From: Candidatus Tayloriibacteriota bacterium
GTDB taxonomy: Bacteria; Patescibacteriota; Minisyncoccia; Phycocordibacterales; HO2-43-120
Reading direction: 5' to 3'
DNA: 64,000 nt
Assembly: GCA_039934295.1 (NCBI GenBank)
Contig: JBDTMN010000002.1
Location: forward strand, 26,725-90,724
Positions 4,671 to 62,538 of this stretch are shown here, one piece after another (within the stretch, counting starts at the first letter, position 1; each line of letters opens with the position of its first letter). Both the position numbers and the translations under genes were made by a program. Below the pieces are notes generated by a model. It saw nothing but the letters and a program-made list of their open reading frames with translations. It was not told the DNA's origin and did no database searches.

Positions 4671-4778
4671 TGGGTGTTTCGCTCATTTGCATTATAGCAG
4701 AGGCAAAAAAGAAATCACACAAAATACAAAGGAGTCCCCCTTAAATAGCCCGACAGCAACCATGCAAAATAAAATAGT

Positions 4779-4960
4779 GCTCGTCCTATCCCCGTAGCAG
4801 AGCTAGCGGGGTATTCGGCGAGCGCATTTTATTTTGAAAACCCCTCGGTTTTCAACGCTCGCCGACTCGCTGCTTTCCGCCACGGGGAAACTCCCGTTTC
4901 CCCGACCCCCTTCCCAAACTCCGCATTCATCCCCGCAGCAGAGCTGTGGGGAATTCTGCG
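4779..4960 (-). repeat. GC-rich hairpin-rich intergenic repeat, diverged inverted copy (copy 3 of family at 12411 and 21496)
   Basis: The reverse complement shares the blocks ctgcKgcggggatgaatg and cgaataccccgc...cggggataggacgag with the other two copies. The central long hairpin is replaced by a different hairpin (cggggaaactcccgtttccccg). GC is far above the surrounding sequence. Confidence 0.55.
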
Positions 4961-4966
4961 GATTTA

Positions 4967-6511
4967 TTAAACGAATCCGGGAAAATAGTCAGTTTTGATT
5001 TTAGAGCGTTTGACACCGATGCCTCGGAGAATTGCTTTGTACGAAGTTACCATCGCCTGCGGTCCTGAAATATAAAACTTTCGCTCCAGAAAATCAGGGA
5101 CTTCTCGTTTAACGGTTTGAGCAAAAAGCGCGGACAGCGCTTCCGGAGACAAGTGAACGCCGTCGTCGCTATATGAATAGACTGTTTTAATCCCGAGCTC
5201 CTTCTTTGCCCTTTCAAAAATATCCGAATATACGGCATCATTCGGAGTTTTATTGAAATACAAAAGAGTGATAGGGCGCGCCTCGCGGTTGTGAAGAAGA
5301 TACTGAATCATACTCCGAAACGGAGTGACCCCTATTCCCCCAGCGATGAAGACAAGCTTTTTATTTTTATTCTTTGGCAAGGTAAAATCGCCCGCGATCT
5401 CGGAAGCCACGATAGACTTCCCTGTGCTCATCGCGAGCATGGCTTTTTTGAATGTGCTTCCCGGTTCATAGAATTTCACCCCGATGGAAAGTTCTCGCTC
5501 GGTCGGAGAGGACGCAAGAGTAAAAAAACGCCTCACGCTCCGGCTATCGGGATGCGAGTGCGCAAGTGTCCACTCCATGTACTGCCCCGGCCGAAACGAA
5601 ACCGGCCTGTCTGACGCAAAAGCAAATTCATACACGTCTCGGGAAAGCCGAACTACTCGTTTCAGTTTCAAATTGAGCTTATATTTCGGGCTGACGAGAT
5701 ACGAAAATACATTTCCCACCAGAAGCGCGAGCTCGGGCGTGAAGTAGAAAGAACCGATGTTCACGTTCGGCAAAAACAGCAGGCCGACGAGAGCTCCGTA
5801 GAGTACACGCAATAATTTCGAGGGCGGAGTAGTCATCGGTTCCGTGAGCATAACCGTTGCAAAGAAAAACGTGGGAGCATAGAGCAACGCCTGACTTAAA
5901 GAACGCACGACATCAAGCCCTCTTCCAAAATAATAAAAGGCAATCCCCACAGTAAACACCCCTATGAAAGCAAACCACAAATCAAATCGTCGTATTTTCC
6001 GAACAATGAGAAGCCCCCCAATGAGCACAAACGGGACCATAGGAAGCGTCCCTATCCACCAACTAGCTGACAAGCCTAAAACAACGCTAGTAGCCGCCAC
6101 ACCGAAAGCGACGGGATTGAAAACATGCTTCTTTCGAATGGCTAAAATATATTTTGAGGCTATGGCAACTGCGGACGCCCAAAATGCGAGCGGAAGATAT
6201 TGCATATCGATCCAAAGAGTAGGGGGACTTATAATCAAAGCAAGAATGAGCGCGGTTATCCACGTTGATTCAGGATTCGAAGGAACCTCGAACATCCGAG
6301 CAAAAATTTTGTTCACAATCCAAGAAACAGAAAAAATAAAAGCCACCGAGAAAACAAGAAAAATAGGGTTTACCGGAAACACGCCAAAAAATCCCATGAT
6401 GAAGGCGACGAGCAAAAGAAAAGCAAGCTCGTACACCACGAGTCGGTACATCGTTATCCTATTTAATATTTTGTCGATTGCTTTTATCATCATGTATTTA
6501 AAAACCGGCAA
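4967..6511 (-). CDS. Membrane oxidoreductase: polytopic N-terminal domain (RnfD/NqrB-like by inference) fused to FNR-like FAD/NAD(P)H-binding domain
   Basis: The C-terminal half has an FAD-binding motif (RRFFTLASSP), an NAD-binding GGIGVTPFRSM motif and a C-terminal YxSGP-like segment (FYISGPQAM), as in the ferredoxin-NADP reductase family. The N-terminal 290 aa has about 8 TM helices with an HVFNPVAFG segment reminiscent of the RnfD/NqrB FNPA region. It overlaps the apbE end by 14 nt, so the two are co-transcribed. Confidence 0.7.
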   Translation of the reverse strand: MPVFKYMMIKAIDKILNRITMYRLVVYELAFLLLVAFIMGFFGVFPVNPIFLVFSVAFIFSVSWIVNKIFARMFEVPSNPESTWITALILALIISPPTLWIDMQYLPLAFWASAVAIASKYILAIRKKHVFNPVAFGVAATSVVLGLSASWWIGTLPMVPFVLIGGLLIVRKIRRFDLWFAFIGVFTVGIAFYYFGRGLDVVRSLSQALLYAPTFFFATVMLTEPMTTPPSKLLRVLYGALVGLLFLPNVNIGSFYFTPELALLVGNVFSYLVSPKYKLNLKLKRVVRLSRDVYEFAFASDRPVSFRPGQYMEWTLAHSHPDSRSVRRFFTLASSPTERELSIGVKFYEPGSTFKKAMLAMSTGKSIVASEIAGDFTLPKNKNKKLVFIAGGIGVTPFRSMIQYLLHNREARPITLLYFNKTPNDAVYSDIFERAKKELGIKTVYSYSDDGVHLSPEALSALFAQTVKREVPDFLERKFYISGPQAMVTSYKAILRGIGVKRSKIKTDYFPGFV

Positions 6512-12381: not shown

Positions 12382-12413
12382 AGCCCCGACTTGCGTTGCA
12401 CGGGGCTTTTTTA
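12382..12413 (+). terminator. Rho-independent terminator after glnB
   Basis: agccccg-acttgcgttgca-cggggct hairpin followed by tttttt. Confidence 0.7.
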
Positions 12414-12693
12414 TTGGAAGCGGACAGAATACCTCGCGTCCCTCCTGCGGCGGGGATGTCATGCCTGAGGCAGATCCGTCCTGAGGCGGAAATGGCCGCA
12501 GTTGAATGAGAGCGAGCGCCCGCCCGAACGTAACCCGCCTGTACCGAAACGTTACGTTCGGGCGGGCGTTTCGGTACGGGCGGGGAGCTCGCTCTTCTCC
12601 AACAAAGTTTGCCCCGATGCCTCGCCTAATACCCCGCCGAGGTTTTGCGAGGGGACGGCTTGCCGCGGGGATAGGACGAGGCCAAACTTTATT
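12411..12693 (+). ncRNA. GC-rich structured repeat element, copy 1 (candidate ncRNA family)
   Basis: Starts ttattggaagcggacagaatacctcgcgtccctcctgcg and ends ggccaaactttat. Contains a long central hairpin (gagagcgagcgcccgcccg ... cgggcggggagctcgctcttc). Near-identical to 21496-21711 except for two insertions of about 31 nt. GC far above local background. Confidence 0.5.
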
Positions 12694-12783
12694 TCTTAAA
12701 TTTCCTAAGCACAACACCCTTACAAACTCCAGTTTGTAAGGATGTTGTGCAAGAGTTGCAGAATGCAGAGGCCTTTTCGATAG

Positions 12784-16737: not shown

Positions 16738-19014
16738 CTATTCTTCTTTACCGCAAAGCTTGATAAGAGCGAGCTCGAGCGGGAGCTGGGGAAGGTACGA
16801 GAAGCCCACTTTGTCCAGAGCATTGAGAAGCACAATGACCGTTTTGGATGAAATTTTCAAGGTCGGGTTTGCGCTCATTTTTTTGAGAAAATTAAAATCG
16901 TTCTGCCCTGTCTCCTCCTTGATTTCCTCTTCCATCTCCTTGGCGTATTTCAAAAGCAGGATGAGACGGACTTTGAAAAGGACGAGCTTCACATAGGTTT
17001 TCATGTCGATATTTGCCTCAGCGGCATTTCGAACGGCGCTCAAGCCTCGCTCTATATTTTGCTCCTCTATGGCCTCGATACATTCGTTCACAAGCTCCGC
17101 GCGAGGCGCGCCGGTGACCATTTCCACCTCGTCATGAGTGATTTTTTTGTCCTTCGAGAAACTCAACACCTTCTGCAAAATCCCCTGCGTGTCCCGAAAT
17201 GACCCTTCGCCCAAAAGTGCGATGAGCTCGAGCGAAGGCGCCTCGAGCGAATAGCCTTCCTTTTTGGAGATGACGGACACCACGTCCCGTAAAACTTCGA
17301 GCGATGGCTTTTTGAAATTAAAAACCTGACAGCGAGAGATAATGGTCTCGGGCAATTTCTCCATTTCGGTTGTGGCTAGAATAAAAACAACATGCTCCGG
17401 TGGCTCTTCCAAAGTTTTTAAAAGAGCATTATTAGCTTCCTTTGTAAGCATATGGCAGTTAGAAGAACATATTCCATTTGCAATAAAAGTATGCGTATCT
17501 TCGACGGTAAAATCGTATACTCTTGCATTCTCCTCTAATCTTTCAATAGTAAGTATTTTTTCGTATCGAAATTGTAAATACGGATTAAATTCCGGTGCTT
17601 CAGCTACCTTTATAAATTCTTTCACGGTCTCACGCATAAGACCCTGAAATTGATCGAGGTATATACCATGTTGATTCAATATCATATGGCTAAGGCGTAA
17701 TTCTTTTCGTCTCGCAAGAAAAGGGACTTGGAGAGGAATACTATCTTGCTTCTCTGCATGGTCAAATTGATTTTTAAGTACATCTGCTTTTCTTTGAATA
17801 GACAACCCAATAGAATTTTGAAAAATTCTTAGATCATATCCCGTAATGTTCAAGCGATATACTGTCTGATGCTTTATATTTTTTCGCTTGATTTCCATTG
17901 CACCGCTTCCGATGCCGAATTTTTTTAACAGAAGTTGAAGTTTTTTGGAAAAAATAGGAGAGCAAGAGTTAAAACTTAATTTAAAAAGTCTTGTCGATTT
18001 TGTAAATGTTGCATCACCCTCGCAGCAAAAACATGTATCAATATAAGCTCTTATGCTTTCAAGAGGTGCTTGGAAAATCGCATCAGGAATATCGATAGAA
18101 TTACTTTTTTTTCCCGAAGGACAGAGTAATTTGATGAGTTCCTTTTTTAGTTGCGGTGAATACGACCTTAGCAATGTAGTACCCCGTTTCGTCTTCGTAA
18201 TAGTCACTTCCCCACCACAATTCCATGCTTTGCATCCATTTGTAAAAGAGGAAATGAAATATTGGACATCTTTTGAGATCTCAACTTGAATTGTGCAAGA
18301 ATCTTTCGAAATATGACCATCACATTGTATCAGTGCGAGAAAAGCAGCTTGATCTTTTGTCAATAGATTTTTCGCTTTATGAGGCAAACTTGCAGGACTT
18401 ATAAGAAAATCTGAAAAATTTATATCTTCTGCCTTAACAAGAGAAAATGCTCCCTTTCTCATCACCCATAATTTATGCGTTGGAGTACATTTTAATGTTG
18501 ATTGAGGTGTACGAATACTGATTAGTTCTTTGGTTTTGCGTGAAAACCAATTAGAGATTTTTTTAAATACAATCGTTCCCGAATTTAAATCGACTGAGGC
18601 GACTTCATCCCCATTTTTTATTTCAGCGATAGATTTAACTGCTCCGTCTGCAAGCTGGATTAAATGATCAGATGTTAGACATTCGTCCACTATGTATACT
18701 TTGTGCTTTGAATCAAAGGGCAGAGTGCTCACCCCTTCGCGAAGTTCGCGCACGTCGTCAATCCCGCGATTCGACGCGGCATCAATTTCATAGAGGTCGT
18801 TGTCGGAGGTGCCGATTTCTCGCGCAAAAATCCTCGCAATCGAAGTTTTTCCGGTCCCCCGAGAGCCCTCGAAAAGATAGGCATGAGAAATTTTGCCTGC
18901 TTCAATAGAGCCCTTCAACACCTTCACGATATGGTCCTGCCCCAAGACATCTCGGAATGATTGAGGGCGGTATTTGCGATAGAGGGCTAATTTGCCCTTT
19001 TTTTCCTCTCCCAT
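16738..19014 (-). CDS. dnaX: DNA polymerase III subunit gamma/tau, interrupted by an intein
   Basis: Walker A GSRGTGKTS. The box KVYIVDE is followed by about 408 aa starting CLTSDHLIQLADG and ending HTFIANGICSSN, then CHMLTKEANNALLKTLEEPPEHVVF resumes the DnaX sensor region. The exteins sum to about 350 aa, a normal DnaX size. Confidence 0.85.
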   Translation of the reverse strand: MGEEKKGKLALYRKYRPQSFRDVLGQDHIVKVLKGSIEAGKISHAYLFEGSRGTGKTSIARIFAREIGTSDNDLYEIDAASNRGIDDVRELREGVSTLPFDSKHKVYIVDECLTSDHLIQLADGAVKSIAEIKNGDEVASVDLNSGTIVFKKISNWFSRKTKELISIRTPQSTLKCTPTHKLWVMRKGAFSLVKAEDINFSDFLISPASLPHKAKNLLTKDQAAFLALIQCDGHISKDSCTIQVEISKDVQYFISSFTNGCKAWNCGGEVTITKTKRGTTLLRSYSPQLKKELIKLLCPSGKKSNSIDIPDAIFQAPLESIRAYIDTCFCCEGDATFTKSTRLFKLSFNSCSPIFSKKLQLLLKKFGIGSGAMEIKRKNIKHQTVYRLNITGYDLRIFQNSIGLSIQRKADVLKNQFDHAEKQDSIPLQVPFLARRKELRLSHMILNQHGIYLDQFQGLMRETVKEFIKVAEAPEFNPYLQFRYEKILTIERLEENARVYDFTVEDTHTFIANGICSSNCHMLTKEANNALLKTLEEPPEHVVFILATTEMEKLPETIISRCQVFNFKKPSLEVLRDVVSVISKKEGYSLEAPSLELIALLGEGSFRDTQGILQKVLSFSKDKKITHDEVEMVTGAPRAELVNECIEAIEEQNIERGLSAVRNAAEANIDMKTYVKLVLFKVRLILLLKYAKEMEEEIKEETGQNDFNFLKKMSANPTLKISSKTVIVLLNALDKVGFSYLPQLPLELALIKLCGKEE
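17457..18681 (-). mobile_element. Intein in dnaX (about 408 aa) with LAGLIDADG-like homing endonuclease segment
   Basis: Begins with Cys, ends ...SSN with Cys at +1. An internal LALIQCDGHIS block resembles a LAGLIDADG motif. The boundaries come from extein motif continuity. Confidence 0.7.
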
Positions 19015-21481: not shown

Positions 21482-21495
21482 TTTTAGCGAATATG

Positions 21496-21711
21496 TTTAT
21501 TGGAAGCGGACAGAATACCTCGCGTCCCTCCTGCGACGAGGATGAATGGCCGCAGTGGAATGAGAGCGAGCGCCCGCCCGAACGTAACGTTTCGGTACGG
21601 GCGGGGAGCTCGCTCTTCTTGAACTATGTTTCCCTGATGCCTCGCCTAATACCCTGCCGAGGTACTCCGAGGGGACAGCTTGCTGCGGGGGTAGGACGAG
21701 GCCAAACTTTA
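21496..21711 (+). ncRNA. GC-rich structured repeat element, copy 2
   Basis: Same 5' (ttattggaagcggacag...) and 3' (...taggacgaggccaaactttat) ends and the same central hairpin as copy 1 at 12411. It lies between the ftsQ stop and the DD-carboxypeptidase start. Confidence 0.5.
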
Positions 21712-21746
21712 TTATACTTTAAAAAAGCATTTCCCATACTTACCTT

Positions 21747-23993: not shown

Positions 23994-24039
23994 ATCATCG
24001 AATGCACGCGAATCTACGAATAAAAATCTTTATTCGTTT

Positions 24040-24074
24040 CATTCGCTGACTTATTCGTATATTCGCATCGTGCT
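24040..24074 (+). promoter_or_regulatory. 35-nt conserved intergenic element with iterated ATTCG motifs (copy 1 of 3)
   Basis: cattcgctgacttattcgtatattcgcatcgtgct recurs at 41712-41746 (same orientation) and 25777-25812 (inverted). This copy sits in the divergent serS/dprA promoter region. Confidence 0.45.
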
Positions 24075-25082: not shown

Positions 25083-25775
25083 CTACCACCCCTTCTTCTT
25101 CAACCCATTCTCGGCCGCTTTTTGTTCCGCTTCCTGTTTTGACTTTCCATCGCCACTTGCAATCAGAGCGTCGCGCAAGTAAACGCCGACTGTAAAAAAC
25201 TTGTCGTGGTCTGGACCGAGCTCTTTCGATACTTTGTACATGGGTGTGATTCCCTCAATCTCCTGGGATTTTTCCTGAAAAAGACTCTTCGCGTCAATCC
25301 ATGTTCCCTTGACCACGATATCATCGATATGGGGGGTAATATATTTGTTGATAAAATTTTCCGCCTCCTTATATCCCTGATCCAAAAATATCGCGCCGAT
25401 CAAGGCCTCCATCGTATTCGCTAAGATAATCTGTCTTGCTTTGCCCTTATCTTTGCTCTCGCCTTTCGAAAGAAGGAGAAAGTCGTCCATGTTGAGCTCT
25501 ACTGCGATGGAAGAAAGAATAATGGCGTTTACCAAAGCCGAGCGGTAGGAGGTAAGGTCGCCTTCGTTTTTGTTTGGGTATTTCTTATACAAATAAACCG
25601 TAGAAACAAGCTCCAGAACTGCGTCTCCCAGAAATTCCAGCCGTTCATTATGCTCCAGAGTCATCCTCTTGTTTTCATTGATGAAAGAGCGATGAGTAAA
25701 AGCCTGCTTCAAAAGGCCCTTGTTTTTAAAAGAGACTCCTATTTTTTTTTCAAATTGTTCGAAATCCATATACAC
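25083..25775 (-). CDS. rnc: Ribonuclease III
   Basis: RNase III signature ERLEFLGDAVLELV plus a C-terminal dsRBD. Confidence 0.9.
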   Translation of the reverse strand: MYMDFEQFEKKIGVSFKNKGLLKQAFTHRSFINENKRMTLEHNERLEFLGDAVLELVSTVYLYKKYPNKNEGDLTSYRSALVNAIILSSIAVELNMDDFLLLSKGESKDKGKARQIILANTMEALIGAIFLDQGYKEAENFINKYITPHIDDIVVKGTWIDAKSLFQEKSQEIEGITPMYKVSKELGPDHDKFFTVGVYLRDALIASGDGKSKQEAEQKAAENGLKKKGW

Positions 25776-25776
25776 G

Positions 25777-25812
25777 ATGCGAATTTACGAATAAATCAGC
25801 GAATGCTACGAA
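25777..25812 (-). promoter_or_regulatory. 35-nt ATTCG-iterated element, inverted copy, abutting the rnc start
   Basis: cacgatgcgaatttacgaataaatcagcgaatg is the reverse complement of the 24040 element with 3 mismatches. Confidence 0.4.
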
Positions 25813-25869
25813 TAAATGATTCAACTTCTTCCATTTGTTGATTCGCATGCATTTGTAGATTGGCATCGC

Positions 25870-26766
25870 TTATTTTTTTAGTAAAATACTGACTGCCTTC
25901 GTCACAATCGGCAAAATGTCGTTATATAGGTTAAGCTCGATGATCTCGTCAATTTTAAACCATCGGGCGTCGTTGAGACCCCCCGACTCCCCAAGAGTAA
26001 TCGGCGTATACTTCGATTCTCCCAGAAAATAGTGGACCTCTTTTCTGATTTTGCCTTTCTCGGGGTCCGATGCGATATATTCATTCTTGCCCAAATCTTC
26101 TTTTATCTCAATGTCGAGGCTGAGCTCTTCTTTAATCTCTCGTATTGTCCCCAATTTTACGTCTTCATCCCCTTCGAGCTTGCCTTTGGAAAGGGTCCAA
26201 TGTCCGAAAATATCGTGGACAAAAGCAAGATAGATGGTTTTTTTGCTTTTAGCGAAAACAACAGCCCCGCCCAATTTGATTATCGTCATGTCCTCGTAAG
26301 CGATTTCGGGACGAATTTTCTTCTTTGAAACCTCATCTTTCCCCGGCTCCCCCATTTCCTTATACACAGAGCCGAGCACGCCGTTTACAAATTTGCCACT
26401 ATTTTCTCCGCCAAATTTTTTTGCGAGCTCAATTGCCTCATTAATTGCAACTTTGGCAGGCACTTCAGCTCGGTCCGAAAACAGTAGCTCAAAAAGCCCG
26501 ATGCGAAGGACATTGCGATCCACGTATGAAATTTTGGCGATCGGCCATTCGGGAGCGGCTTTTTCGATTACCTGATCCAAATCTGCTCTCTTTTTTAATA
26601 TATCTTTTGCAAGCGAGACCACGAAAGACAAATCACCGATGCCTGGAGCGAATTCCTTGGCATTTCTCGCTAATATCTCATCAATATCGCTCTCTTTTCT
26701 TTGGGCAAAATCCCACTCGAAGAGCGATTGGAGAACTATTGATCTTGAAAGGTGCCTGTTGGCCAT
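25870..26766 (-). CDS. nusB: NusB transcription antitermination factor fused to a C-terminal NUDIX hydrolase domain
   Basis: The N-terminal 140 aa has a NusB fold pattern (RSIVLQSLFEWDF...NEAIELAKKFGGE). The C-terminal 150 aa carries the Nudix box GKLEGDEDVKLGTIREIKEELSLDI. Confidence 0.75.
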   Translation of the reverse strand: MANRHLSRSIVLQSLFEWDFAQRKESDIDEILARNAKEFAPGIGDLSFVVSLAKDILKKRADLDQVIEKAAPEWPIAKISYVDRNVLRIGLFELLFSDRAEVPAKVAINEAIELAKKFGGENSGKFVNGVLGSVYKEMGEPGKDEVSKKKIRPEIAYEDMTIIKLGGAVVFAKSKKTIYLAFVHDIFGHWTLSKGKLEGDEDVKLGTIREIKEELSLDIEIKEDLGKNEYIASDPEKGKIRKEVHYFLGESKYTPITLGESGGLNDARWFKIDEIIELNLYNDILPIVTKAVSILLKK

Positions 26767-26784
26767 TTTACATAGAACATGTAA

Positions 26785-26850
26785 CGCGTAACATATAACA
26801 TTTAAGATCGTATCCTCTTGTGTTACAAGTTGCGTGTTGCGTGTTGTGTG
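26785..26850. repeat. Heptanucleotide GTAAC-core tandem arrays in inverted pair (downstream of rpmF, upstream of nusB)
   Basis: gtaacgc gtaacat ataacat ... then gttacaa gttgcgt gttgcgt gttgtgt. The two arms can form an imperfect long hairpin. Confidence 0.55.
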
Positions 26851-41497: not shown

Positions 41498-41711
41498 AGA
41501 GATGTATATTAATTAGTGTTCAAATTATATCATAAACGCAATGCCAATCCACGAATAAAAATAAACCCCTCTCCTCGAAGACTCGTTTCTCCCCTTGGAA
41601 ATGGGAGAAGGATCCCTCCCCTCCTTGCTAAGGAGGGGAGTCGAGTCTGCGAGACGGGGTGGTAATTATTATTCGCATGCTCTACTCGTAAGGGTTCCTA
41701 ACCATTCGTAT

Positions 41712-41746
41712 CATTCGCCGACTTATTCGTATATTCGCATCGTGCT
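41712..41746 (+). promoter_or_regulatory. 35-nt ATTCG-iterated element (copy 3), abutting the gatB stop, upstream of gap
   Basis: cattcgccgacttattcgtatattcgcatcgtgct differs by 1 nt from the 24040 copy. Confidence 0.45.
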
Positions 41747-47339: not shown

Positions 47340-48512
47340 TTATTCGTCCTCGCCCACATCTGGCTTCTCGAGCGCTAAAGGCTCAAAGTCGCTCGCTTTG
47401 CCGGTGATGCGAACGACATCTTTGTTTATCTTGCCAAACTCTTTGTCCGATGTATTGAAATGGCTAACCACAGTTGCAAGCGAGTTGCCGAGCTTGCCAT
47501 GATACTCTTGATAGGAGCGGAGATGCTTCTGGAGAGCCTCCACATTTTTGCGAATATCTTTTGCCGATTCTTCTATCTGGAGTGCCTTCAAGCCTTGTAA
47601 CACAGTCTGGAGAAATGCCAGGAATGAAGTCGGAGACACAATCAGCACATGCTTGTCCTTAAAGGCATATTCAATGAGGTCGCGGGTATTGATTTTCATC
47701 CCACCCACTTCTGCGACCAAAAGGTCATAATAAATTGCTTCGTGCGGAATAAACATGAACGCAAAATCCATCGTGCCTTGCGAAGGCTGAACGTATTTTG
47801 CCGTTTCATCAATGCGATTTTTGAGATCGCCTTTAAACGCCTTCTCGAGACGCTCGCGCTCCGCCGGGTCTTTCTCCGCAACAAGACGATTGTAATTTTC
47901 AAGCGAAAACTTCGAGTCAATCGGAATAATTTTGTCTTTCACGTGCACGACCGCATCCACAATCGTGCCATCCTTGAATGGATACTGCATTTCGAAGCTC
48001 CCCGGAGGCAGAACATTTTTGAGCAATGTCTCAAGATAGTATTCGCCAAGTATTCCTCTCTGTTTTGGATTTTTCAAAATGTCCTGCAGGTTTTGTAACT
48101 GGTCGGCAAAGGATACCACCTGCTTGTTGGTCTCGTCGAGCTTGGTCAAGCCCTGTGTCACGTCGCGGATAAGCTTTGCCGACTCGCTAAACTGGGTACG
48201 GACAGAATCGCTCATCTGCTTTGACCCTTCGGTCATTTTGGCGTCCACGGTTTTTCCCAAATCACTCATTTTTGAGTCCACCGTCCTCCCAAGCTCATTT
48301 AGCTGATTCAATAGCAATGTGAGCCCTTGACCGTCTTCCTTCGGCTTATCCCTTTTTCTCAAAAAAAAGAAAAGTAAAGCGCCATTTCCCACGAGGAAAA
48401 TAACCAAAATCAGGACAAGAACGTAGATATTAATTTGCATGGGGGTATTATACCAGAGAACGTGTAACATATAACATGTAACATTTAACGGGTAACGGGT
48501 AACGGGTAACAT
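47340..48512 (-). CDS. rmuC: DNA recombination protein RmuC
   Basis: N-terminal TM helix, coiled coil, then the RmuC core ILGEYYLETLLKNVLPPGSFEMQYPFKDGTIVDAVVHVKDKIIPIDSKF. The true start may be Met-25 (about 48440), because the first 18 codons of the ORF are encoded by a heptamer repeat array. Confidence 0.75.
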   Translation of the reverse strand: MLPVTRYPLNVTCYMLHVLWYNTPMQINIYVLVLILVIFLVGNGALLFFFLRKRDKPKEDGQGLTLLLNQLNELGRTVDSKMSDLGKTVDAKMTEGSKQMSDSVRTQFSESAKLIRDVTQGLTKLDETNKQVVSFADQLQNLQDILKNPKQRGILGEYYLETLLKNVLPPGSFEMQYPFKDGTIVDAVVHVKDKIIPIDSKFSLENYNRLVAEKDPAERERLEKAFKGDLKNRIDETAKYVQPSQGTMDFAFMFIPHEAIYYDLLVAEVGGMKINTRDLIEYAFKDKHVLIVSPTSFLAFLQTVLQGLKALQIEESAKDIRKNVEALQKHLRSYQEYHGKLGNSLATVVSHFNTSDKEFGKINKDVVRITGKASDFEPLALEKPDVGEDE

Positions 48513-48536: not shown

Positions 48537-48580
48537 TGACATACGTTATAATCTTGCTATAGCTAGATTATAACGTATGT
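48537..48580. promoter_or_regulatory. Perfect 17-bp inverted repeat with 10-nt spacer in the divergent rmuC / 48582 promoter region
   Basis: gacatacgttataatct-tgctatagct-agattataacgtatgtc. Confidence 0.5.
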
Positions 48581-48581
48581 C

Positions 48582-51809: not shown

Positions 51810-51881
51810 GGCCCTATCGTCTATCGGCTAGGACGGAGCCTTCTCAAGGCTCAAAGCAGGGTTCGACTCCCTGTAGGGTCA
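51810..51881 (+). tRNA. tRNA-Glu (anticodon CUC)
   Basis: GGCCCTATCGTCTATCGGCTAGGACGGAGCCTTCTCAAGGCTCAAAGCAGGGTTCGACTCCCTGTAGGGTCA. Acceptor is 7 bp including one G-U. D-loop has GG. Anticodon loop TTCTCAA. T-loop TTCGACT. Discriminator A. Manual fold. Confidence 0.7.
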
Positions 51882-52424
51882 CAGATTTTTGCGTAGCATA
51901 AAAAGCTGTGACACTAAGCAGAGCTGGGGGCTCTGCGTCAGGGAGTCGAAGCCCGATTGAGCATTTTTTTTGAGTTTGCTTCAAACGAGGAAAAAATCCA
52001 ATCGGGGTACTGAACATGTAATGTTCGACTCCCTGTAGGGTCACAAAAATAATGAGGACAATGCGGAGCATTGGCTGAGTATAATTTTGTAGATTCTACA
52101 GGGAGTCGAAAGACGGAGCGGGCACCCGTTCACCAGAACGGGTCGCGAGTCGGGGTCGCGGCTTTTGTGAGACGGCGGTCGAACAAAAAGCTGTGACCGA
52201 CTCCCTGTAGGGTCACAAATTTTTTTAAAGCGAGCAAACTGCTTTGCTCGTGAAAAATTTGTGAAGGCACAGGCCTAGTTCGCGAGTACGCGAACAGCCG
52301 AGCCGGGGTCGGCAAGTACTTACATTTTTTGTGATTTTAAGAAACAAAAAATTTAGTAACTTGTGACCACATAAACTTTGAGTGCGTAGCACACAATTAT
52401 GACCGACTCCCTGTAGGGTCACAG
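51861..52424 (+). repeat. Array of four direct copies (plus two inverted partial copies) of the tRNA-Glu 3' end (T-loop plus acceptor 3' strand)
   Basis: Direct copies (g/a)(t/c)cgactccctgtagggtcaca at 51861-51883 (in the tRNA), 52023-52045, 52197-52219 and 52401-52423. Inverted partial copies agggagtcgaa at 51941-51951 and 52101-52111. Spacings 162, 174 and 204 nt. Confidence 0.7.
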
Positions 52425-52432
52425 ATTTTCGC

Positions 52433-55400
52433 TCACAATAAGTTCTGTAACATCTCGATTATCCATCGCAAAATTTTATACAACGTGTTCCAAAACTCTT
52501 GCAAAATGCCCATGAAAGATGCGCTGAGTGCCTTCAAGACCCCTGCAGTAACATTGACGGGAGAAACCGAGTCGGTATTTGTTTTGATACTTACGCTTAC
52601 GCCCGGAGCTTCCTGGCCAGGATGATTGAAGCGGTAGCCGGCGGGAATATTGTCAGCGGTTTGAGCAGCGTTTGTTGGAGAATATGGCGGCCAGGAGAGT
52701 GAGCCGAACCATGCGGGTTTGGAGGAAAGGTAGAGAGAATTTGGCAGAGTCTGTCCTCCCGTCAAGGCTTCATTTGCAGGAATGCCTTTGCCGAAAATAT
52801 AGTTCTGTTTCCTGATGAACGTGAGTCCGACATCCATATCAAGTTCCTGGAATCCTTCTGATCTCGGCCAAAGACCTATGGCAGTTCCCTGTGCCGGAAG
52901 TGGGTCTAGGTATCCTCCGGTAAGAGAAACAGCATTGCCGGAAAAAGCAGTCGTATGCATGCCTATTCGAGCGCCATTGCTCCATTGCGTTGTAATCGCC
53001 GGACAATTTCCTCCAAAAGCCTGGCAGTATCCTAGCAGTCGCGAAGTTCCGGCGCTCAAGGTTACGACACCGCTTGAACCATCAGATGCGCGACTAGTGA
53101 GGGTACCTTTGATGCCGAGCCCGGCGACAGGGCTCCAGTCTAGCCAATATATGCCTTGGCTCGGTAGGGCAAATCCCGTGGAGGCTCCATTGCCGATGTT
53201 CGGCTGGCCGAGACTATATGCACCTACGACATTACCGATGGCACTAAAATTCCTGGAAAAACGCTTGAAGGCAAGAAAGCCCGATGTCCAGTTCCTAAAG
53301 AACATTTCTTCCGAATCGCTTCCAAAATAGCCGTCTGATTTGAATTCGCCTCCCTGCAAATAATTTCCTTCATATAGATTGTAGCTATTATGAGAACCAT
53401 GGTTGACGTTCACACTGCCGTCAGGCATATAATTGTAGGCGAAAACATTACCTACGGAACTAAAGTTTATTTCAAGAAGCGGGAATGATTTGTAAACGAT
53501 GTTATCTTCAAACAGACATCCGGTATTTCCTCCGCTCAAAAATCCAGAGCCATTTGTACCGCCATGGTTGAGCTCGTCGAGGAAGGAATGTCTGACCTCG
53601 CACCCCAAGCTATCATTAAAACTTATCGAGTAATTACTCATGTGTCTGACTTTGACATTCTTGACCCATGAAGCGTATGTGCCTCCAGCGCTTATTCCAA
53701 ATTGAGTGGTGGCATTTGACCCGTCAATGGTCAGGTCTTCAATACCGACATACCTTGAGGTTGCATAATTCGGCGCAGTGATGCTTGGCTGTCTCCCTGA
53801 AAAATCAACGATAAGAGGCGGGGAGAAGCTAAGGGCGCTACCTGACTTCCCAGTCAGAACCACAATCTGGGATTGGATATTTTCGTAGCCCGAGACTGAT
53901 ATAGTCGGTAGAGATGTTTTATTTTTTCCGCTTATTTTGACTATATTTCCAACTGTATATGGTGATGAGTCAGAAACGCTGACTTGAGTGCTTCCCTTCG
54001 AAGCGCCTGAAAGGACCGGCACGGCAGAAACATTGTAAAATTCAGATCCGCGTATATTCACACAGACGCTTGGAACATAACAATCAAGAATAGTACTCGC
54101 TCCTGCTCCGCGAAGCGTTATATTACTCTTAAAAGATGCGACGATCTGGGTCAAGATCTTATAGGTTCCCGCGGGCAAATAAACAATATCATTTGCCACC
54201 GCGGCGGTGATGGCACTATTTATGGCTGGAGCGGCATCGGTAGCTCCAGTTTTATCCGCATTGTAGGGCGCTTGGGTGACATCAATGAGATGAGTGCGAT
54301 TTGTCGGAATCCCTCCAGTAACGCCTGCGGTAACTCCAGGAATCCAGTTGGCCAAACGGTTTGAAGGTATCAAAGCAGATGATCCGCCTGGAGTGGTTGC
54401 TGCAACACCTGCCGACGGAGGCGAGACATTTCCGCCGTTATCTGTAGCCGTCACTGTGTATGTATACGTCGTACCTGGGGAGACGGTGAAGTCCTGGTAG
54501 TACTGCTGTTCCGTATCATGATACGGAGCTTGGTACGGTATGTGCGCAATAGTCCCTATCTGGGTTCCATTCCTATATATAGTATACGAAGTAATGGTTC
54601 CGGTTGTTGGCGTTGAGCGCAACCAGATAAGGCTGATTTGGTCTGGCGCCACGCCGGCAGCCGATACATAGGTCGGCGCGGGCACGCCACTTACTGAAGA
54701 TAAGTTGAATGTTGCTGTAACTGTCGTATTTGAAGCTACAGTGACTACACATGTCCCCGTTCCACTACATCCTCCTCCAGACCAACCGGTGAAGGTAGAG
54801 CCCGAAGTAGCTACAGCGGTAAGAGTTGAAACTGTGCCAGAGGTGAGGCCTGAAGCCGAACAGGTACTGCCACAACTCACAGATCCTCCTGTGGAAGTCA
54901 CCGTACCTCCTCCCGTGCCTGCCTTGGTGATCGTAAGAGTAAATGTTGTTGGCGTCGCTACTCCACTAGTAGTAACCGATAAAGCGGCTGACGGAACGGA
55001 GTTATTGGGAGCTCCCGCGTTGTCATAGGATGATATAGTGTATGAATATGTGGTGCTTGCCACAAGACCAGAGTTGGCGAAAGAGGTACCGGATGTTACC
55101 GTGCCCACTTGAGCCCCTCCTCTCCATACTTTGTATCCCGCCACGTTTCCTCCCCCAGTATCAGTCGAAGCTGTCCATGAAATAGTTGCTCCTGTTTGGG
55201 TTACGTTTGATGACGAAAGATTTGTAGGTACGGACGGAGCTTGTGTGTCTGAAGGAGAGCCGGAACCACTACCATCTGTAGCGGTAACACTTCTAAATCC
55301 GTAGTCAGTATCCGCGCCTCCATATGCCCTGAGCCAGCCTATGCCGGGTGCACCACTGGCAAAGGTGCTGTCAGTAGTCGTAAGTATGGAAACATTGTTG

Positions 55401-57745
55401 ACGTAAAGGGTGATGGTATTGCCGATCATCGTGCCTTTGATGGTACTGTTGTCAGTAAGAAATGGGGCTCCCTGTGCGGCACTCAAATTGGCCAATACCG
55501 TGAAGTTACCTAACGCACCATTCCAGCGAACGATAGAATAATATTGAGTACCAGTTGGACTGAGACCGTAGGTCAACTCATAGCCAGTATTGGAATGGGC
55601 TGAGATACTGCTACGTAGACGAATCTCGAGTTCCTCAACAGCACTTCCTGTAGGATTCACCGTATGCACAACAGCAGTGACTGTTTGATCTGGACCCCAA
55701 GTGCCGGAGAGTATAGCGGTAGAATCATCATAGCCACCTGAGGGCGGCTGTGTGCCATATACCAATCCATTTGCCATACGCATATCAGTCCAGTCTAGAC
55801 CTGTCGCCTTGCCGTTGATCCAGTTGCCGGATTCTGATAGAGGATTTTCTGCGCCACCGGAGAAAGTTGTGACATAGGTACGGGGATTGCCTGCTGAAAC
55901 CGCCTGCGTGGTTGCGCTCGCGGAAGATGATTGGGCCGATGGATTCCCTGCCGCGTCTTGCGCTAAGACTGTATATGAATATGAGGTGTTTGCGGTAAGA
56001 CCAGTACTCGAATACGAATTGGTGCTTGGTGTAGCTACTTGTGTGCCGTTTCTAAATACTTTGTATCCTGTAACCCCTACATTGTCTGTTGAAGCAGTCC
56101 AGGATAGGTTTATCTGGCTCGAAGATACCGCGGAAGCCGAAAGGTTCGTAGGGGTCGAAGGTGCGGTGGTGTCTGGGACAACAGAGATAGTCTCAGAGCA
56201 GGAGGCAGTGGTTCCTCCGTTTGATCCGGTACAACTCCAGAGACGCGCAGTCGAGGTGTCAGTAACATCTGCGAATGTGCCCGATGTGCACTGGTTGAGA
56301 GTGGTTGAACACAGACCGTTGACCGCTGTCCCCCCTCCTCCCCCCACTGCATTCAATAGCTCGGTGATTTCTTGAGCAGAGAGTGCTCGGCTGTAGATGC
56401 GGACTTCGTCAATAGAGCCGTTAAAGACCCAGTTCGGACCGAAGATGTTGTTTATAATGACAGATTTACTATTTGCATCAGTGGTCCCACTAGCGGCGGC
56501 TTCAGATTTTTTGACACCGTCCACCCAGATGCTGACTTTTGAACCGTCATACATACCGACAAGATGGTGCCAATTTGAATCAGTTATGGTTGGAGCCGCT
56601 CCGGATGAGTACTTCACCCCTCCGCTTGTGATTTGAAATTGTGGATTGAACGCATAGTTGTCAGAATACAAGCTCCATTCTATAGTTGCATAAGGACTTC
56701 CTTTTGTGACCAGATATTTCAATTGACCCACTTCATTATTACTCACTTGCTTAATCCATACTGAAACAGTCATGGCGTTTAACCCATCGAGTGCGTTAAT
56801 GTCTTTCGCATCGACATAATCATCCACCCCGTCAAACTTCAATCCCTGCCCGATCTTTCCCGTGGTAAATGTCGGTCCGTTTATGAGTGTGCCGGTATTT
56901 GATCCCACGGAGTCGTTAGCGTTACCGTCGAAGGCCCAGTAGCTTATGAGTTTGCCAACGGAGGTCGGTGGGGGCGGAGTAGGAGTGACTCCTCCACCTG
57001 TGGAGTTGTATATGTCGGTGATTTCTTGAGCAGAGAGTGCTCGGCTGTAGATGCGGACTTCGTCAATAGAGCCGTTAAAGACCCAGTTCGGACCGAAGAT
57101 GTTGTTTATAATGACAGATTTACTATTTGCATCAGTGGTCCCACTAGCGGCGGCTTCAGATTTTTTGACACCGTCCACCCAGATGCTGACTTTTGAACCG
57201 TCATACATACCGACAAGATGGTGCCAATTTGAATCAGTTATGGTTGGAGCCGCTCCGGATGAGTACTTCACCCCTCCGCTTGTGATTTGAAATTGTGGAT
57301 TGAACGCATAGTTGTCAGAATACAAGCTCCATTCTATAGTTGCATAAGGACTTCCTTTTGTGACCAGATATTTCAATTGACCCACTTCATTATTACTCAC
57401 TTGCTTAATCCATACTGAAACAGTCATGGCGTTTAACCCATCGAGTGCGTTAATGTCTTTCGCATCGACATAATCATCCACCCCGTCAAACTTCAATCCC
57501 TGCCCGATCTTTCCCGTGGTAAATGTCGGTCCGTTTATGAGTGTGCCGGTATTTGATCCCACGGAGTCGTTAGCGTTACCGTCGAAGGCCCAGTAGCTTA
57601 TGAGGTTACTTGAGGGAATAGCTTGAGCGCGCTGGGAAGAAGTGTAGACGTTATTAATTTGCTTGTTGAGTGTGGAAAAACTTAAAACTGCTACTAATAA
57701 AAGAAACGCTGTGGCAATAATGCCAAGAATGTGTTTTTTATACAT
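52433..57745 (-). CDS. Giant secreted/anchored surface protein (1770 aa): two identical LamG/ConA-like lectin domains, fibronectin-III-like domains, Thr/Ser/Gly-rich linkers, C-terminal right-handed beta-helix-like region
   Basis: N-terminal signal anchor. Duplicated about 196-aa segment LISYWAFDGNANDSVGSNTGTLINGPTFTTGKIGQGLKFDGVDDYVDAKD... (LamG-like). FN3-like PSTPTNLSASAVSSSQINLSWTASTDNVGVTGYKVFRNG. A later region with NxxG / parallel beta-helix-like repeats. Confidence 0.7.
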   Translation of the reverse strand: MYKKHILGIIATAFLLLVAVLSFSTLNKQINNVYTSSQRAQAIPSSNLISYWAFDGNANDSVGSNTGTLINGPTFTTGKIGQGLKFDGVDDYVDAKDINALDGLNAMTVSVWIKQVSNNEVGQLKYLVTKGSPYATIEWSLYSDNYAFNPQFQITSGGVKYSSGAAPTITDSNWHHLVGMYDGSKVSIWVDGVKKSEAAASGTTDANSKSVIINNIFGPNWVFNGSIDEVRIYSRALSAQEITDIYNSTGGGVTPTPPPPTSVGKLISYWAFDGNANDSVGSNTGTLINGPTFTTGKIGQGLKFDGVDDYVDAKDINALDGLNAMTVSVWIKQVSNNEVGQLKYLVTKGSPYATIEWSLYSDNYAFNPQFQITSGGVKYSSGAAPTITDSNWHHLVGMYDGSKVSIWVDGVKKSEAAASGTTDANSKSVIINNIFGPNWVFNGSIDEVRIYSRALSAQEITELLNAVGGGGGTAVNGLCSTTLNQCTSGTFADVTDTSTARLWSCTGSNGGTTASCSETISVVPDTTAPSTPTNLSASAVSSSQINLSWTASTDNVGVTGYKVFRNGTQVATPSTNSYSSTGLTANTSYSYTVLAQDAAGNPSAQSSSASATTQAVSAGNPRTYVTTFSGGAENPLSESGNWINGKATGLDWTDMRMANGLVYGTQPPSGGYDDSTAILSGTWGPDQTVTAVVHTVNPTGSAVEELEIRLRSSISAHSNTGYELTYGLSPTGTQYYSIVRWNGALGNFTVLANLSAAQGAPFLTDNSTIKGTMIGNTITLYVNNVSILTTTDSTFASGAPGIGWLRAYGGADTDYGFRSVTATDGSGSGSPSDTQAPSVPTNLSSSNVTQTGATISWTASTDTGGGNVAGYKVWRGGAQVGTVTSGTSFANSGLVASTTYSYTISSYDNAGAPNNSVPSAALSVTTSGVATPTTFTLTITKAGTGGGTVTSTGGSVSCGSTCSASGLTSGTVSTLTAVATSGSTFTGWSGGGCSGTGTCVVTVASNTTVTATFNLSSVSGVPAPTYVSAAGVAPDQISLIWLRSTPTTGTITSYTIYRNGTQIGTIAHIPYQAPYHDTEQQYYQDFTVSPGTTYTYTVTATDNGGNVSPPSAGVAATTPGGSSALIPSNRLANWIPGVTAGVTGGIPTNRTHLIDVTQAPYNADKTGATDAAPAINSAITAAVANDIVYLPAGTYKILTQIVASFKSNITLRGAGASTILDCYVPSVCVNIRGSEFYNVSAVPVLSGASKGSTQVSVSDSSPYTVGNIVKISGKNKTSLPTISVSGYENIQSQIVVLTGKSGSALSFSPPLIVDFSGRQPSITAPNYATSRYVGIEDLTIDGSNATTQFGISAGGTYASWVKNVKVRHMSNYSISFNDSLGCEVRHSFLDELNHGGTNGSGFLSGGNTGCLFEDNIVYKSFPLLEINFSSVGNVFAYNYMPDGSVNVNHGSHNSYNLYEGNYLQGGEFKSDGYFGSDSEEMFFRNWTSGFLAFKRFSRNFSAIGNVVGAYSLGQPNIGNGASTGFALPSQGIYWLDWSPVAGLGIKGTLTSRASDGSSGVVTLSAGTSRLLGYCQAFGGNCPAITTQWSNGARIGMHTTAFSGNAVSLTGGYLDPLPAQGTAIGLWPRSEGFQELDMDVGLTFIRKQNYIFGKGIPANEALTGGQTLPNSLYLSSKPAWFGSLSWPPYSPTNAAQTADNIPAGYRFNHPGQEAPGVSVSIKTNTDSVSPVNVTAGVLKALSASFMGILQEFWNTLYKILRWIIEMLQNLL
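56361..57604. repeat. Apparently perfect 590-bp tandem duplication (56361-56950 and 57015-57604) with a 64-nt linker, inside the giant gene
   Basis: The ORF track shows two identical 79-aa + strand ORFs 654 nt apart. My read of the nucleotides shows identity from tcggtgatttcttgagcagag to cccagtagcttatgag in both blocks. Confidence 0.8.
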
Positions 57746-62023: not shown

Positions 62024-62538
62024 TGAATCAATTTGATTAACTCATATACTTCTCCTTTAATCGTAAGGAAAACTTTCACGAATTCTTTTCCGTTCGCGCT
62101 CTCGTGTTCAAATGATAGAGCGTCAATGGAAACAAAATCGCTATTCAATTTATTTTCGGGTGATGCTCCTCTTCTTAGCATGATACTTTTTCCCGCTGGG
62201 TCAAAACTCAACGTTAAAGAAATTCCGGACCCGCGCAGAGAGAGCGTTGACCCAGAACTACCCAATGCGGGCACTGATACAGACGTAACTCCGGCAAACA
62301 AGGAATCAATCTTTTTGAGCAAGAAATTTGTCTCTTCAATGAGCAGGACTTTTTCGCTCATGGCATTTTCGTTTGCAATAACCTGATATGCAGTCTGAAG
62401 AAAACTTCCCATGATAAGAGCAAGAAGGGCAATGTAAATGAGAGACTCGATGAGGGTGAAGCCGCGGGAATATGTAACATGTAACTTGTAACATGAAACA
62501 TGGAAAAATCTTTTTTGCATTTTTGATTTCATGGTCAA
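62020..62538 (-). CDS. Type IV pilin-like protein with long leader
   Basis: SRG|FTLIESLIYIALLALIMG is the canonical prepilin N-methylation/cleavage motif with Glu5. The leader is 20-26 aa depending on which Met is used. Confidence 0.7.
   Translation of the reverse strand: MTMKSKMQKRFFHVSCYKLHVTYSRGFTLIESLIYIALLALIMGSFLQTAYQVIANENAMSEKVLLIEETNFLLKKIDSLFAGVTSVSVPALGSSGSTLSLRGSGISLTLSFDPAGKSIMLRRGASPENKLNSDFVSIDALSFEHESANGKEFVKVFLTIKGEVYELIKLIQ

Follow-up and report, generated by a model that had tools for sequence, protein, structure and literature searches.

What kind of sequence is the G+C-rich, hairpin-rich repeat that occurs three times between unrelated housekeeping genes in a 64,000-nt stretch of a Candidatus Tayloriibacteriota genome (contig JBDTMN010000002.1, positions 26,725 to 90,724; this whole stretch is hereafter called the window)? 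An earlier note on this DNA had proposed a structured noncoding RNA (ncRNA) or a miniature mobile element, with copies at three places. These three copies are present in the sequence, can be aligned with one another, and are the only ones in the window that are recovered by nhmmer and by a covariance model. Between the two proposals our analysis favors the mobile element. Judging from the organization of their ends, we consider it probable, although well short of certain, that the repeats are gene-less IS200/IS605-type elements (PATEs), including a short REP-like form, that are moved in trans by a Y1 HUH transposase.

Ends, guides and target motifs

Comparison across the family, which was also used to refine the boundaries of the copies, reveals three architectures that have common ends and different interiors. 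Type A is ~185 nt in length and includes copies 1 and 2 of the window, type B is ~200 nt and includes copy 3, and type C is ~75 nt. The 5′ part of type A begins directly after a flanking TTTAT and reads TGTAAYTGCGG-AG-AATA-CCCCG(N)NNN-CUUG-NNN-CGGGG-ATGAAT-CCGCA, followed by a GC-rich central hairpin, and the 3′ part reads CAACAAAGTTTGCCCCGATGCCTCGCC-T-AATA-CCCCG...CGGGG-ATAGGA-CGAGGCCAAAC-TTTAT, where the element ends. Copies 1 and 2 start with TGGAAGCGGAC- in place of TGTAAYTGCGG-, a variant that is also seen at loci L014, L021, L074 and L094. Type B carries the same two end modules around a conserved center of its own (...GGGAAGGGGGTCGGGGAAAC-GGGA-GTTTCCCCG...GTTGAGAACC-GAGA-GGTTCTCAAAATAAAAG...), which is also found in other genomes. 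Copy 3 is thus a member of a different subfamily, and not a version of the same structure with drifted sequence as had been supposed. Type C, which recurs in several genomes, consists of a left arm, one hairpin and a right arm, the two arms being distinct and ~27 nt each.

The elements lack terminal inverted repeats: when the right 28 nt are reverse-complemented and compared with the left 27 nt, nothing but the CCCCG hairpin foot is common to the two. On the same strand, however, both ends carry similar subterminal imperfect palindromes of the form AATA-CCCCG(N)NNN-loop-NNNCGGGG-AT. Each end is composed of a 4-nt motif, which is AATA or, in type B left ends, AATT, then a CCCC(G)...(C)GGGG hairpin with one bulged base, and then AT. 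The layout of the family can be written as TTTAT, 13 nt, AATA-CCCCG(N)NNN-CUUG-NNNCGGGG-ATG ... AATA-CCCCG..CGGGG-ATAGGACGAGGCCAAACT-TTAT, with the left boundary immediately after TTTAT and the right boundary immediately after TTAT. The distance between the left flanking motif and the 4-nt motif is 13 nt in type A and 11 nt in type B. Downstream of the right hairpin, 18 nt lead to the TTTAT that ends the element, and the next base varies (T, G, A or C). On the other side, every intact left end adjoins TTTAT or TTTAA, where similarity between copies stops and beyond which the flanks are unrelated.

This arrangement resembles that of IS608, in which subterminal imperfect hairpins are bound by the transposase TnpA, exclusively on the top strand. 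IS608 is cleaved on the left at TTAC, a host motif 19 nt 5′ of the left hairpin foot, and on the right at TCAA, which belongs to the element and lies 10 nt 3′ of the right hairpin. Recognition of these sites occurs via base pairing with a 4-nt guide located just 5′ of each hairpin foot, which is AAAG on the left and GAAT on the right, and the AT 3′ of the foot forms triples with the guide. The ends of IS608 therefore read TTAC, 19 nt, AAAG-CCCCTAGCTTTTAGCTATGGGG-ATAC ... GAAT-CCCCTAGCTTTAGCTATGGGG-AGTATG-TCAA, and the element inserts 3′ of TTAC with DNA neither gained nor lost. Like IS608, the Patescibacteria repeats lack both terminal inverted repeats and target duplications. They share with it similar strand-specific subterminal hairpins that have a CCCC...GGGG foot and an extrahelical base and that are bordered at the foot by a 4-nt guide on the 5′ side and directly by AT on the 3′ side, a left end that abuts a T-rich host motif, and a right cleavage motif within the element 3′ of the right hairpin. 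Some hairpins are IS608-like in sequence, for example the right hairpin of copy 3 (CCCCGCTAGCTCTGCTACGGGG) and that of L135 (CCCCGATAGCTTAGCTCTCGGGG), and gene-less multi-copy derivatives (PATEs) exist among IS200/IS605 elements as well. Nevertheless, there are differences. The left spacer is 13 or 11 nt between target and guide, compared with 19 nt between TTAC and the hairpin foot in IS608, and the right hairpin is 18 nt rather than 10 nt from its cleavage motif. Whereas IS608 has its bulged base in the 3′ arm, here it is in the 5′ arm; an additional covarying helix surrounds each end hairpin, and the interior is a conserved multi-helix fold. Moreover, the host belongs to the Patescibacteria, and no tnpA or tnpB was found in the sequences searched (see below).

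Guides and targets in the new family are complementary under the IS608 rule. The pairing register (g1:c-3, g2:c-4, g3:c-2, g4:c-1) was derived from the two IS608 guide/site pairs and the published A+16:T-3 and A+17:T-4 pairings. It predicts that AATA should be accompanied by TTAT and AATT by TTAA, and both combinations are observed; plain antiparallel Watson-Crick pairing between guide and flank was also tried and failed for type B. Among 25 left ends with AATA, the adjoining motif is TTAT in 23, TTAA in one and another sequence in one, whereas six of the eight left ends with AATT adjoin TTAA and two adjoin TTAT. This association gives a Fisher test value of ~2e-4 for cases that are not phylogenetically independent, that represent few events and that track the division between types A and B. 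Right ends, which carry AATA, almost always terminate in TTAT, and a single-hairpin element with AATT (L137) has TTAA on both sides.

A check for target-site duplications, which the earlier note had suggested as an indicator of mobility, revealed no copy-specific flanking duplication. The longest string shared by the two flanks has a mean length of 6.2 nt for true pairs of flanks, compared with 5.9 nt for mismatched ones. Furthermore, six type B or C copies have TTTAA as their left flank and TTTAT as their right end, and since the left TTTAA of type B differs from the right TTTAT, it is not a duplicated target. In copy 3, this TTTAA is host sequence because it holds the stop codon of the upstream gene. 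The absence of target duplication fits IS200/IS605-type insertion. Insertion sites lie in terminator T-tracts for copy 1 and for L028, L148, L177 and L014, and at a stop codon for copy 3.

If these are IS200/IS605-type elements, a Y1 HUH transposase (TnpA or RAYT-like) encoded elsewhere in the genome would bind the top strand, in single-stranded form, at both hairpins. Each hairpin's adjoining 4-nt guide would then pair with the corresponding cleavage motif, AATA with TTAT and AATT with TTAA, and cleavage of the top strand would follow the host TTTAT or TTTAA at the left end and the TTTAT belonging to the element itself at the right end. The element would leave as a single-strand circle in which the right end is joined to the left end, giving the junction ...AAACTTTAT followed by TGTAAC... 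or TGGAAG..., and could re-insert 3′ of another TTTAT or TTTAA, often in a terminator T-tract or at a stop codon.

A dispersed family with a covarying fold

Relatives of the three copies were sought in public sequence data. The first scan used the 15-mer CGGGGRTAGGACGAG as its pattern, and most of the 120 loci that it returned are chance matches, but blastn among them identified nine true homologous Patescibacteria loci, in metagenome-assembled genomes (MAGs) labeled as Taylorbacteria, Paceibacterota, Parcubacteria, Saccharibacteria and unclassified Patescibacteria. A specific gapped pattern yielded 56 metagenome loci. The relatives come from Patescibacteria MAGs and from groundwater and sediment metagenomes, and the collected loci together with the window contain 62 instances of the covariance model, ~15 of which are cut by the end of a contig. 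One 2.6-kb contig has an element fragment at each end, two contigs carry two copies each, and independent Logan assemblies of the window's own organism end at two of the copies, 42 nt into copy 3 and shortly before copy 1. Within the window, the 25-mer CAGAATACCTCGCGTCCCTCCTGCG occurs twice (0.00 expected), and CTCGCCTAATACCCCGC occurs five times at ≤3 mismatches (0.08 expected). Because copies are numerous and assemblies break at them, the sequence is a high-copy dispersed repeat, and its family includes decayed, partial or truncated, and end-only copies. The element has no matches in IMG/VR, INPHARED or PLSDB, which were searched for carriage by phages or plasmids. Clustering of 252 neighboring open reading frames (ORFs) revealed no recurrent gene family. 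A string search of the literature found no match for three 14-mers of the conserved motifs, and found an 11-mer only in unrelated papers.

Two pairs of loci (L146 2320-2505 with L163 862-1047, and L155 with L170) have an identical element and right flank joined to unrelated left flanks. Either the repeats have served as sites of recombination or contigs have been assembled chimerically across them.

The structure-preserving variation described by the earlier note is real for the end hairpins and for helices P1, P2, P4, P5 and P6 across ~60 homologs, but does not extend to the center of copy 3. In an 18-sequence MAFFT alignment, 93.6% of cells pair, compared with 85% in column shuffles and 38-47% when partners are slid, and 18 pairs have changes on both sides. 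A model-guided alignment of 62 sequences, which is fitted to the structure and hence leans towards it, has compensatory changes in 40 of 49 pairs. Helix P1 (UUGNN/NNCAA) pairs the first bases of the element with the segment preceding CAAAGUUU, and P2 and P6 enclose the end hairpins while leaving the guides in internal loops. There are 84 G·U compared with 36 A·C combinations, and therefore the plus strand of the element is the one that folds, either as RNA or as single-stranded DNA. The RNA folding z-score of the plus strand is -3.8, and the ends of copy 3 fold as single-stranded DNA with z ~ -3.6, much like the ends of IS608.

Some copies depart from this fold. In place of the left internal loop AGAATA or AGAATT, L074a (L074 3806-3993) and L173 (7892-8122), which are independent copies, have ATTCAT, which is exactly complementary to the ATGAAT opposite it. 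The left loop thereby becomes a perfect helix and the guide is destroyed, probably by a hairpin template-switch mutation. Copy 1 was reported to have two insertions, one of them a duplication of a hairpin arm, and it does carry two extra segments relative to copy 2. The first is not present in any other family member. The second is not a simple arm duplication, but an inverted duplication of the central hairpin, whose 35 nt are 97% complementary to 21571-21605 in the central hairpin of copy 2. This duplication turns an imperfect hairpin into two perfect palindromes. The conversions in L074a and L173 and the inverted duplication in copy 1 look like template-switch events at DNA hairpins.

Weighing the possible explanations

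Several observations weigh against an IS200/IS605-type origin. No Y1 transposase, TnpB or other recombinase was found among the 30 window ORFs scanned with Pfam, which are about half of its ORFs. Likewise, tblastn with approximate IS608 and IS200 TnpA query sequences gave no match in the window and 177 loci, or ~420 kb of Patescibacteria DNA. These transposase searches cover a small sample of the genomes concerned, including ~74 kb of the host genome. An autonomous element with such ends was not encountered in the window and loci, and no empty site or presence/absence polymorphism was obtained, the nearest homolog of a flanking protein being only 52% identical. Guide and target are mismatched in L169, L078 and L139, and the guide is CATA in L094 and L074. 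An IS608-type model predicts no flanking direct repeats, but L157 and L126 have repeats of 15 bp and 10 bp, respectively. In the former (940-1210), a type B element lies between perfect 15-bp direct repeats (CCTTTATCTTTAATC), and the 8 nt before the left repeat (TTTTTAAT) resemble the element's own right terminus (GTTTTATT). In addition, compensatory changes affect the inner helices, and the loops, which are GNRA-like in type B (GGGA, GAGA) and G-CUUG-C in the end hairpins, are as in functional RNAs. The identity of 80-90% over parts of the element across distantly labeled lineages also fits purifying selection on a functional RNA. The conserved inner helices are unexplained by an IS608-like mechanism, and may reflect folding of a single-stranded DNA intermediate or a role at the RNA level.

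One such role would be that of a guide RNA. According to Meers et al., gene-less IS200/IS605 derivatives often still encode a guide-RNA scaffold that ends at the right transposon boundary, and the entire element examined here is likewise a covarying fold that ends at its right boundary. The PATEs might therefore have kept a trans-acting omega-RNA-like scaffold for a TnpB- or IscB-type nuclease encoded elsewhere, although we regard this as unlikely. The 185-200-nt fold would be transcribed with ~16 nt of flank and loaded into the nuclease, TTTAT or TTTAA would act as the transposon-adjacent motif, and types A and B would represent two classes of scaffold served by the same transposase. Under this proposal, both the GNRA and CUUG loops and the covariation of helices that are dispensable for TnpA would be explained. 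However, unlike known omega-RNA PATEs, the elements have no similarity to Rfam families, and no TnpB or IscB was seen in the sequences examined. A second possibility at the RNA level is a multi-copy structured ncRNA gene family of Patescibacteria, wherein the fold is the function (for example, that of a protein-binding or regulatory small RNA) and the repeats are paralogous genes. The strong covariation over the whole length, a strand-specific fold with the z-score given above, GNRA-type and G-CUUG-C tetraloops and conservation of sequence across lineages are what such genes would display, and the lack of an Rfam match implies that the RNA would be new. We nevertheless consider an ncRNA gene family to be very unlikely. 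Upstream regions have neither a conserved nor a predicted promoter, and the left flanks are unrelated to one another up to TTTAT; a sigma-70-like promoter was specifically not predicted upstream of copies 1 and 2, although little is known about promoters of Patescibacteria. Copies occur in all four orientation classes relative to neighboring genes (15/10/9/6), six copies are antisense to both neighbors, and some directly follow the terminator of another gene. Copies are very dense, and assemblies break at them. Moreover, decayed and truncated copies exist, 75-nt derivatives with only the two termini are present in several genomes, and internal loops have been 'perfected' into helices in L074a and L173.

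Whatever the origin of the repeats, hosts could have recruited them as cis elements, such as terminators, insulators or mRNA stabilizers, and kept them for that role. The 3′ domain is indeed a long G+C-rich helix followed by UUUAUU, and the elements sit tightly between genes, often within 0-100 nt. In addition, the interior of copy 3 contains an outward promoter-like sequence, TTGAAA-18-TAAAAT (4826-4855, minus strand; 10/12 matches), that faces the downstream P-type ATPase gene, but its -10 is not conserved in the type B consensus. Recruitment of this kind is also quite improbable, because copy 1 and several other copies lie after an already complete terminator, the orientation relative to the upstream gene is the same in 24 cases and opposite in 16, and a terminator scan does not call the element ends as terminators. 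The conserved 4-nt motifs and the TTTAT/TTTAA boundaries would also be left unexplained. The known system that is closest in phenomenology is bcr1 of Bacillus cereus, a transcribed intergenic repeat of ~155 bp with 5-bp TTTAT flanking direct repeats, many partial copies, two independent stem-loops with compensatory changes, and no known transposase. Type A resembles bcr1 in its ~185-nt length, its TTTAT at both ends and its two stem-loop domains, and for this family too no transposase was found in the ORFs and loci searched. It is thus conceivable, but rather unlikely, that the family is a bcr1-like structured repeat bounded by TTTAT, which is duplicated on insertion by an unknown mechanism, possibly akin to site-specific recombination, that is unrelated to HUH transposases. 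The combination of TTTAA on the left and TTTAT on the right in six type B or C copies is not a duplication, and the change in the left flank accompanies a change in the 4-nt motif by the hairpin, which plain duplication does not predict. Furthermore, the elements have no blastn match in 72,556 plasmids; bcr1 copies have been reported on B. cereus group plasmids. The two repeats occur in different phyla, and no sequence similarity between them was detected, as judged from the plasmid-collection blastn and not from an alignment with the bcr1 consensus itself.

The short form of the putative IS200/IS605-type family also invites comparison with REP elements and their RAYT transposases. Type C is likewise a single G+C-rich, intergenic, multi-copy hairpin with a conserved tetranucleotide 5′ of its foot, and REP elements carry a GTAG or CGTC tag (PMC3733652). 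However, type C retains its distinct ~27-nt arms, and neither BIME-like pairs nor a RAYT gene flanked by inverted copies was seen in the window and loci.

Other candidates were considered and rejected. A classical miniature transposable element with inverted repeats (MITE) derived from a DDE transposon does not fit the absence of inverted termini and of copy-specific duplications. The earlier statement that the repeat belongs to no known RNA family stands, as no element type has an Rfam match, whether to RNase P, tmRNA, a riboswitch, a ribozyme, omega-RNA or another family. At the gathering threshold, Rfam yields only two tRNAs in the window, and E-value scans with all three element types return nothing or chance-level matches (eukaryotic microRNA and small nucleolar RNA families) far below gathering scores. 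A self-cleaving ribozyme was discarded because there is neither a motif nor an Rfam match, and a comparison by eye with kink-turn, sarcin-ricin and 11-nt-receptor internal loops found none that fits its consensus.

The copies in their window and the significance of the family

The coordinates of the three copies and of their parts are given in the table below. All copies are intergenic, as the earlier note claimed and as the ORFs of the window confirm. Their G+C content (54-61%) is above that of the window (~44%), as had been stated, although this background is only moderately AT-rich. Copy 1 lies between convergent genes for a P-II protein and an M14 peptidase. Copy 2 is antisense to both of its neighbors, a D-Ala-D-Ala carboxypeptidase gene and an FtsQ-like gene on the minus strand, and copy 3 is flanked by an RnfD/NQR-like gene and a P-type ATPase gene. 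In copy 3, the left guide is AATT and the right guide is AATA, the right end reads ...TTTTAT, and the central module has GNRA-type loops.

Table. Positions in the window of the three copies, their end modules and the adjoining host motifs (HMM, hidden Markov model).
Feature	Position	Strand	Description
Copy 1	12415-12692	+	Type A, 278 nt; covariance-model match 12408-12696, 154.5 bits
Host target TTTAT adjoining copy 1 left end	12410-12414	+	Tail of the T-tract of the P-II gene terminator (12385-12409)
Copy 1 left-end module	12428-12455	+	Guide AATA 12428-12431, hairpin CCTCG...CGGGG 12432-12455, then ATG; P3 and P3b covary
Copy-1-specific 32-nt insertion	12459-12490	+	3′ side of the left module; direct repeat CCTGAGGC x2
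Copy-1-specific inverted duplication of central hairpin	~12534-12568	+	Arrangement L-R'-L'-R
Copy 1 right-end module	12628-12692	+	Guide AATA 12628-12631, hairpin CCCCG...CGGGG 12632-12670, ATAGGACGAGGCCAAACT, terminal cleavage motif TTAT 12689-12692
Copy 2	21501-21712	+	Type A, 212 nt; covariance-model match 21494-21716, 158.9 bits
Host target TTTAT adjoining copy 2 left end	21496-21500	+	From sequence and flank comparison
Copy 2 left guide AATA	21514-21517	+	Hairpin 21518-21541
Copy 2 right guide AATA	21648-21651	+	Hairpin 21652-21690; terminal TTAT 21709-21712
Copy 3	4769-4966	-	Type B, 198 nt; match 4765-4973; type B HMM E 8e-65; 57.3 bits with type A model
Host target TTTAA adjoining copy 3 left end	4967-4971	-	Holds the TAA stop codon (4969-4967) of upstream ORF 4967-6511

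The window contains other repeats and signs of sequence rearrangement. A second small repeat, the 43-44-nt ATTCG-rich TTTATTCGTTTCATTCGCTGACTTATTCGTATATTCGCATCGTG, occurs at 24029-24074, 25773-25816 and 41704-41746 with 90-95% identity; one copy is inverted and all are between genes. An AGCT-rich intergenic repeat of ~30 nt (TTTAAAGCTAAAACCTGACAGCTAATAGCT) has 4-5 copies in both orientations, at 17310, 34425, 36116, 38186 and 48954. Arrays of a 7-nt unit ending in GTAAC (AACATGTAAC or GGGTAAC) are located at 26762-26806, 48452-48510 and 62469-62499, the largest of which lies at a strand switch and GC-skew minimum at ~48.5 kb, by a perfect 22-nt palindrome (48538-48581) and with no dnaA nearby. 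This array may be a replication origin or a protein-binding array. The region of the skew minimum near 50 kb carries RmuC and YqeY genes without dnaA or dnaN.

Downstream of this region, a tRNA-Glu (51810-51882) is followed by three more copies of its 3′ end (GTTCGACTCCCTGTAGGGTCACA) at 52015, 52187 and 52393, all within 51810-52430 on the plus strand. These copies are spaced by 160-206 nt just upstream of a 1770-aa ORF, and look like serial integration scars at a tRNA attachment site. Tandem duplications at 56335-57288 and 57999-58970 (654 nt, 96%; 672 nt, 82%) lie inside the giant ORFs 52433-57745 and 57917-60793. On the minus strand at 16738-19014, an ORF for a DnaX-like gamma/tau subunit of DNA polymerase III is split by an intein that includes a LAGLIDADG homing-endonuclease domain (Pfam Intein_splicing, Hint and LAGLIDADG_3).

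The genomes of Patescibacteria, also known as the candidate phyla radiation (CPR), are small, and mobile DNA is usually said to be scarce in them. To our knowledge, gene-less IS200/IS605-type elements have not previously been described in these organisms. In the window, however, one repeat family fills ~1% of 64 kb and breaks assemblies. Recognition of the family averts false calls of novel structured RNAs in these genomes and explains contig breaks and some chimeric MAG joins, and the covariance model can be used for masking. The parallel with bcr1 suggests that the same analysis of guides and cleavage motifs should be applied to unexplained TTTAT-bounded repeats of Bacillus. If the proposed origin of the family is correct, then Patescibacteria would have an active single-strand (HUH Y1) transposition system that targets TTTAT or TTTAA, and a guide-RNA scaffold in the interior of the elements, should that reading hold, would suggest that CPR bacteria possess compact RNA-guided nucleases.

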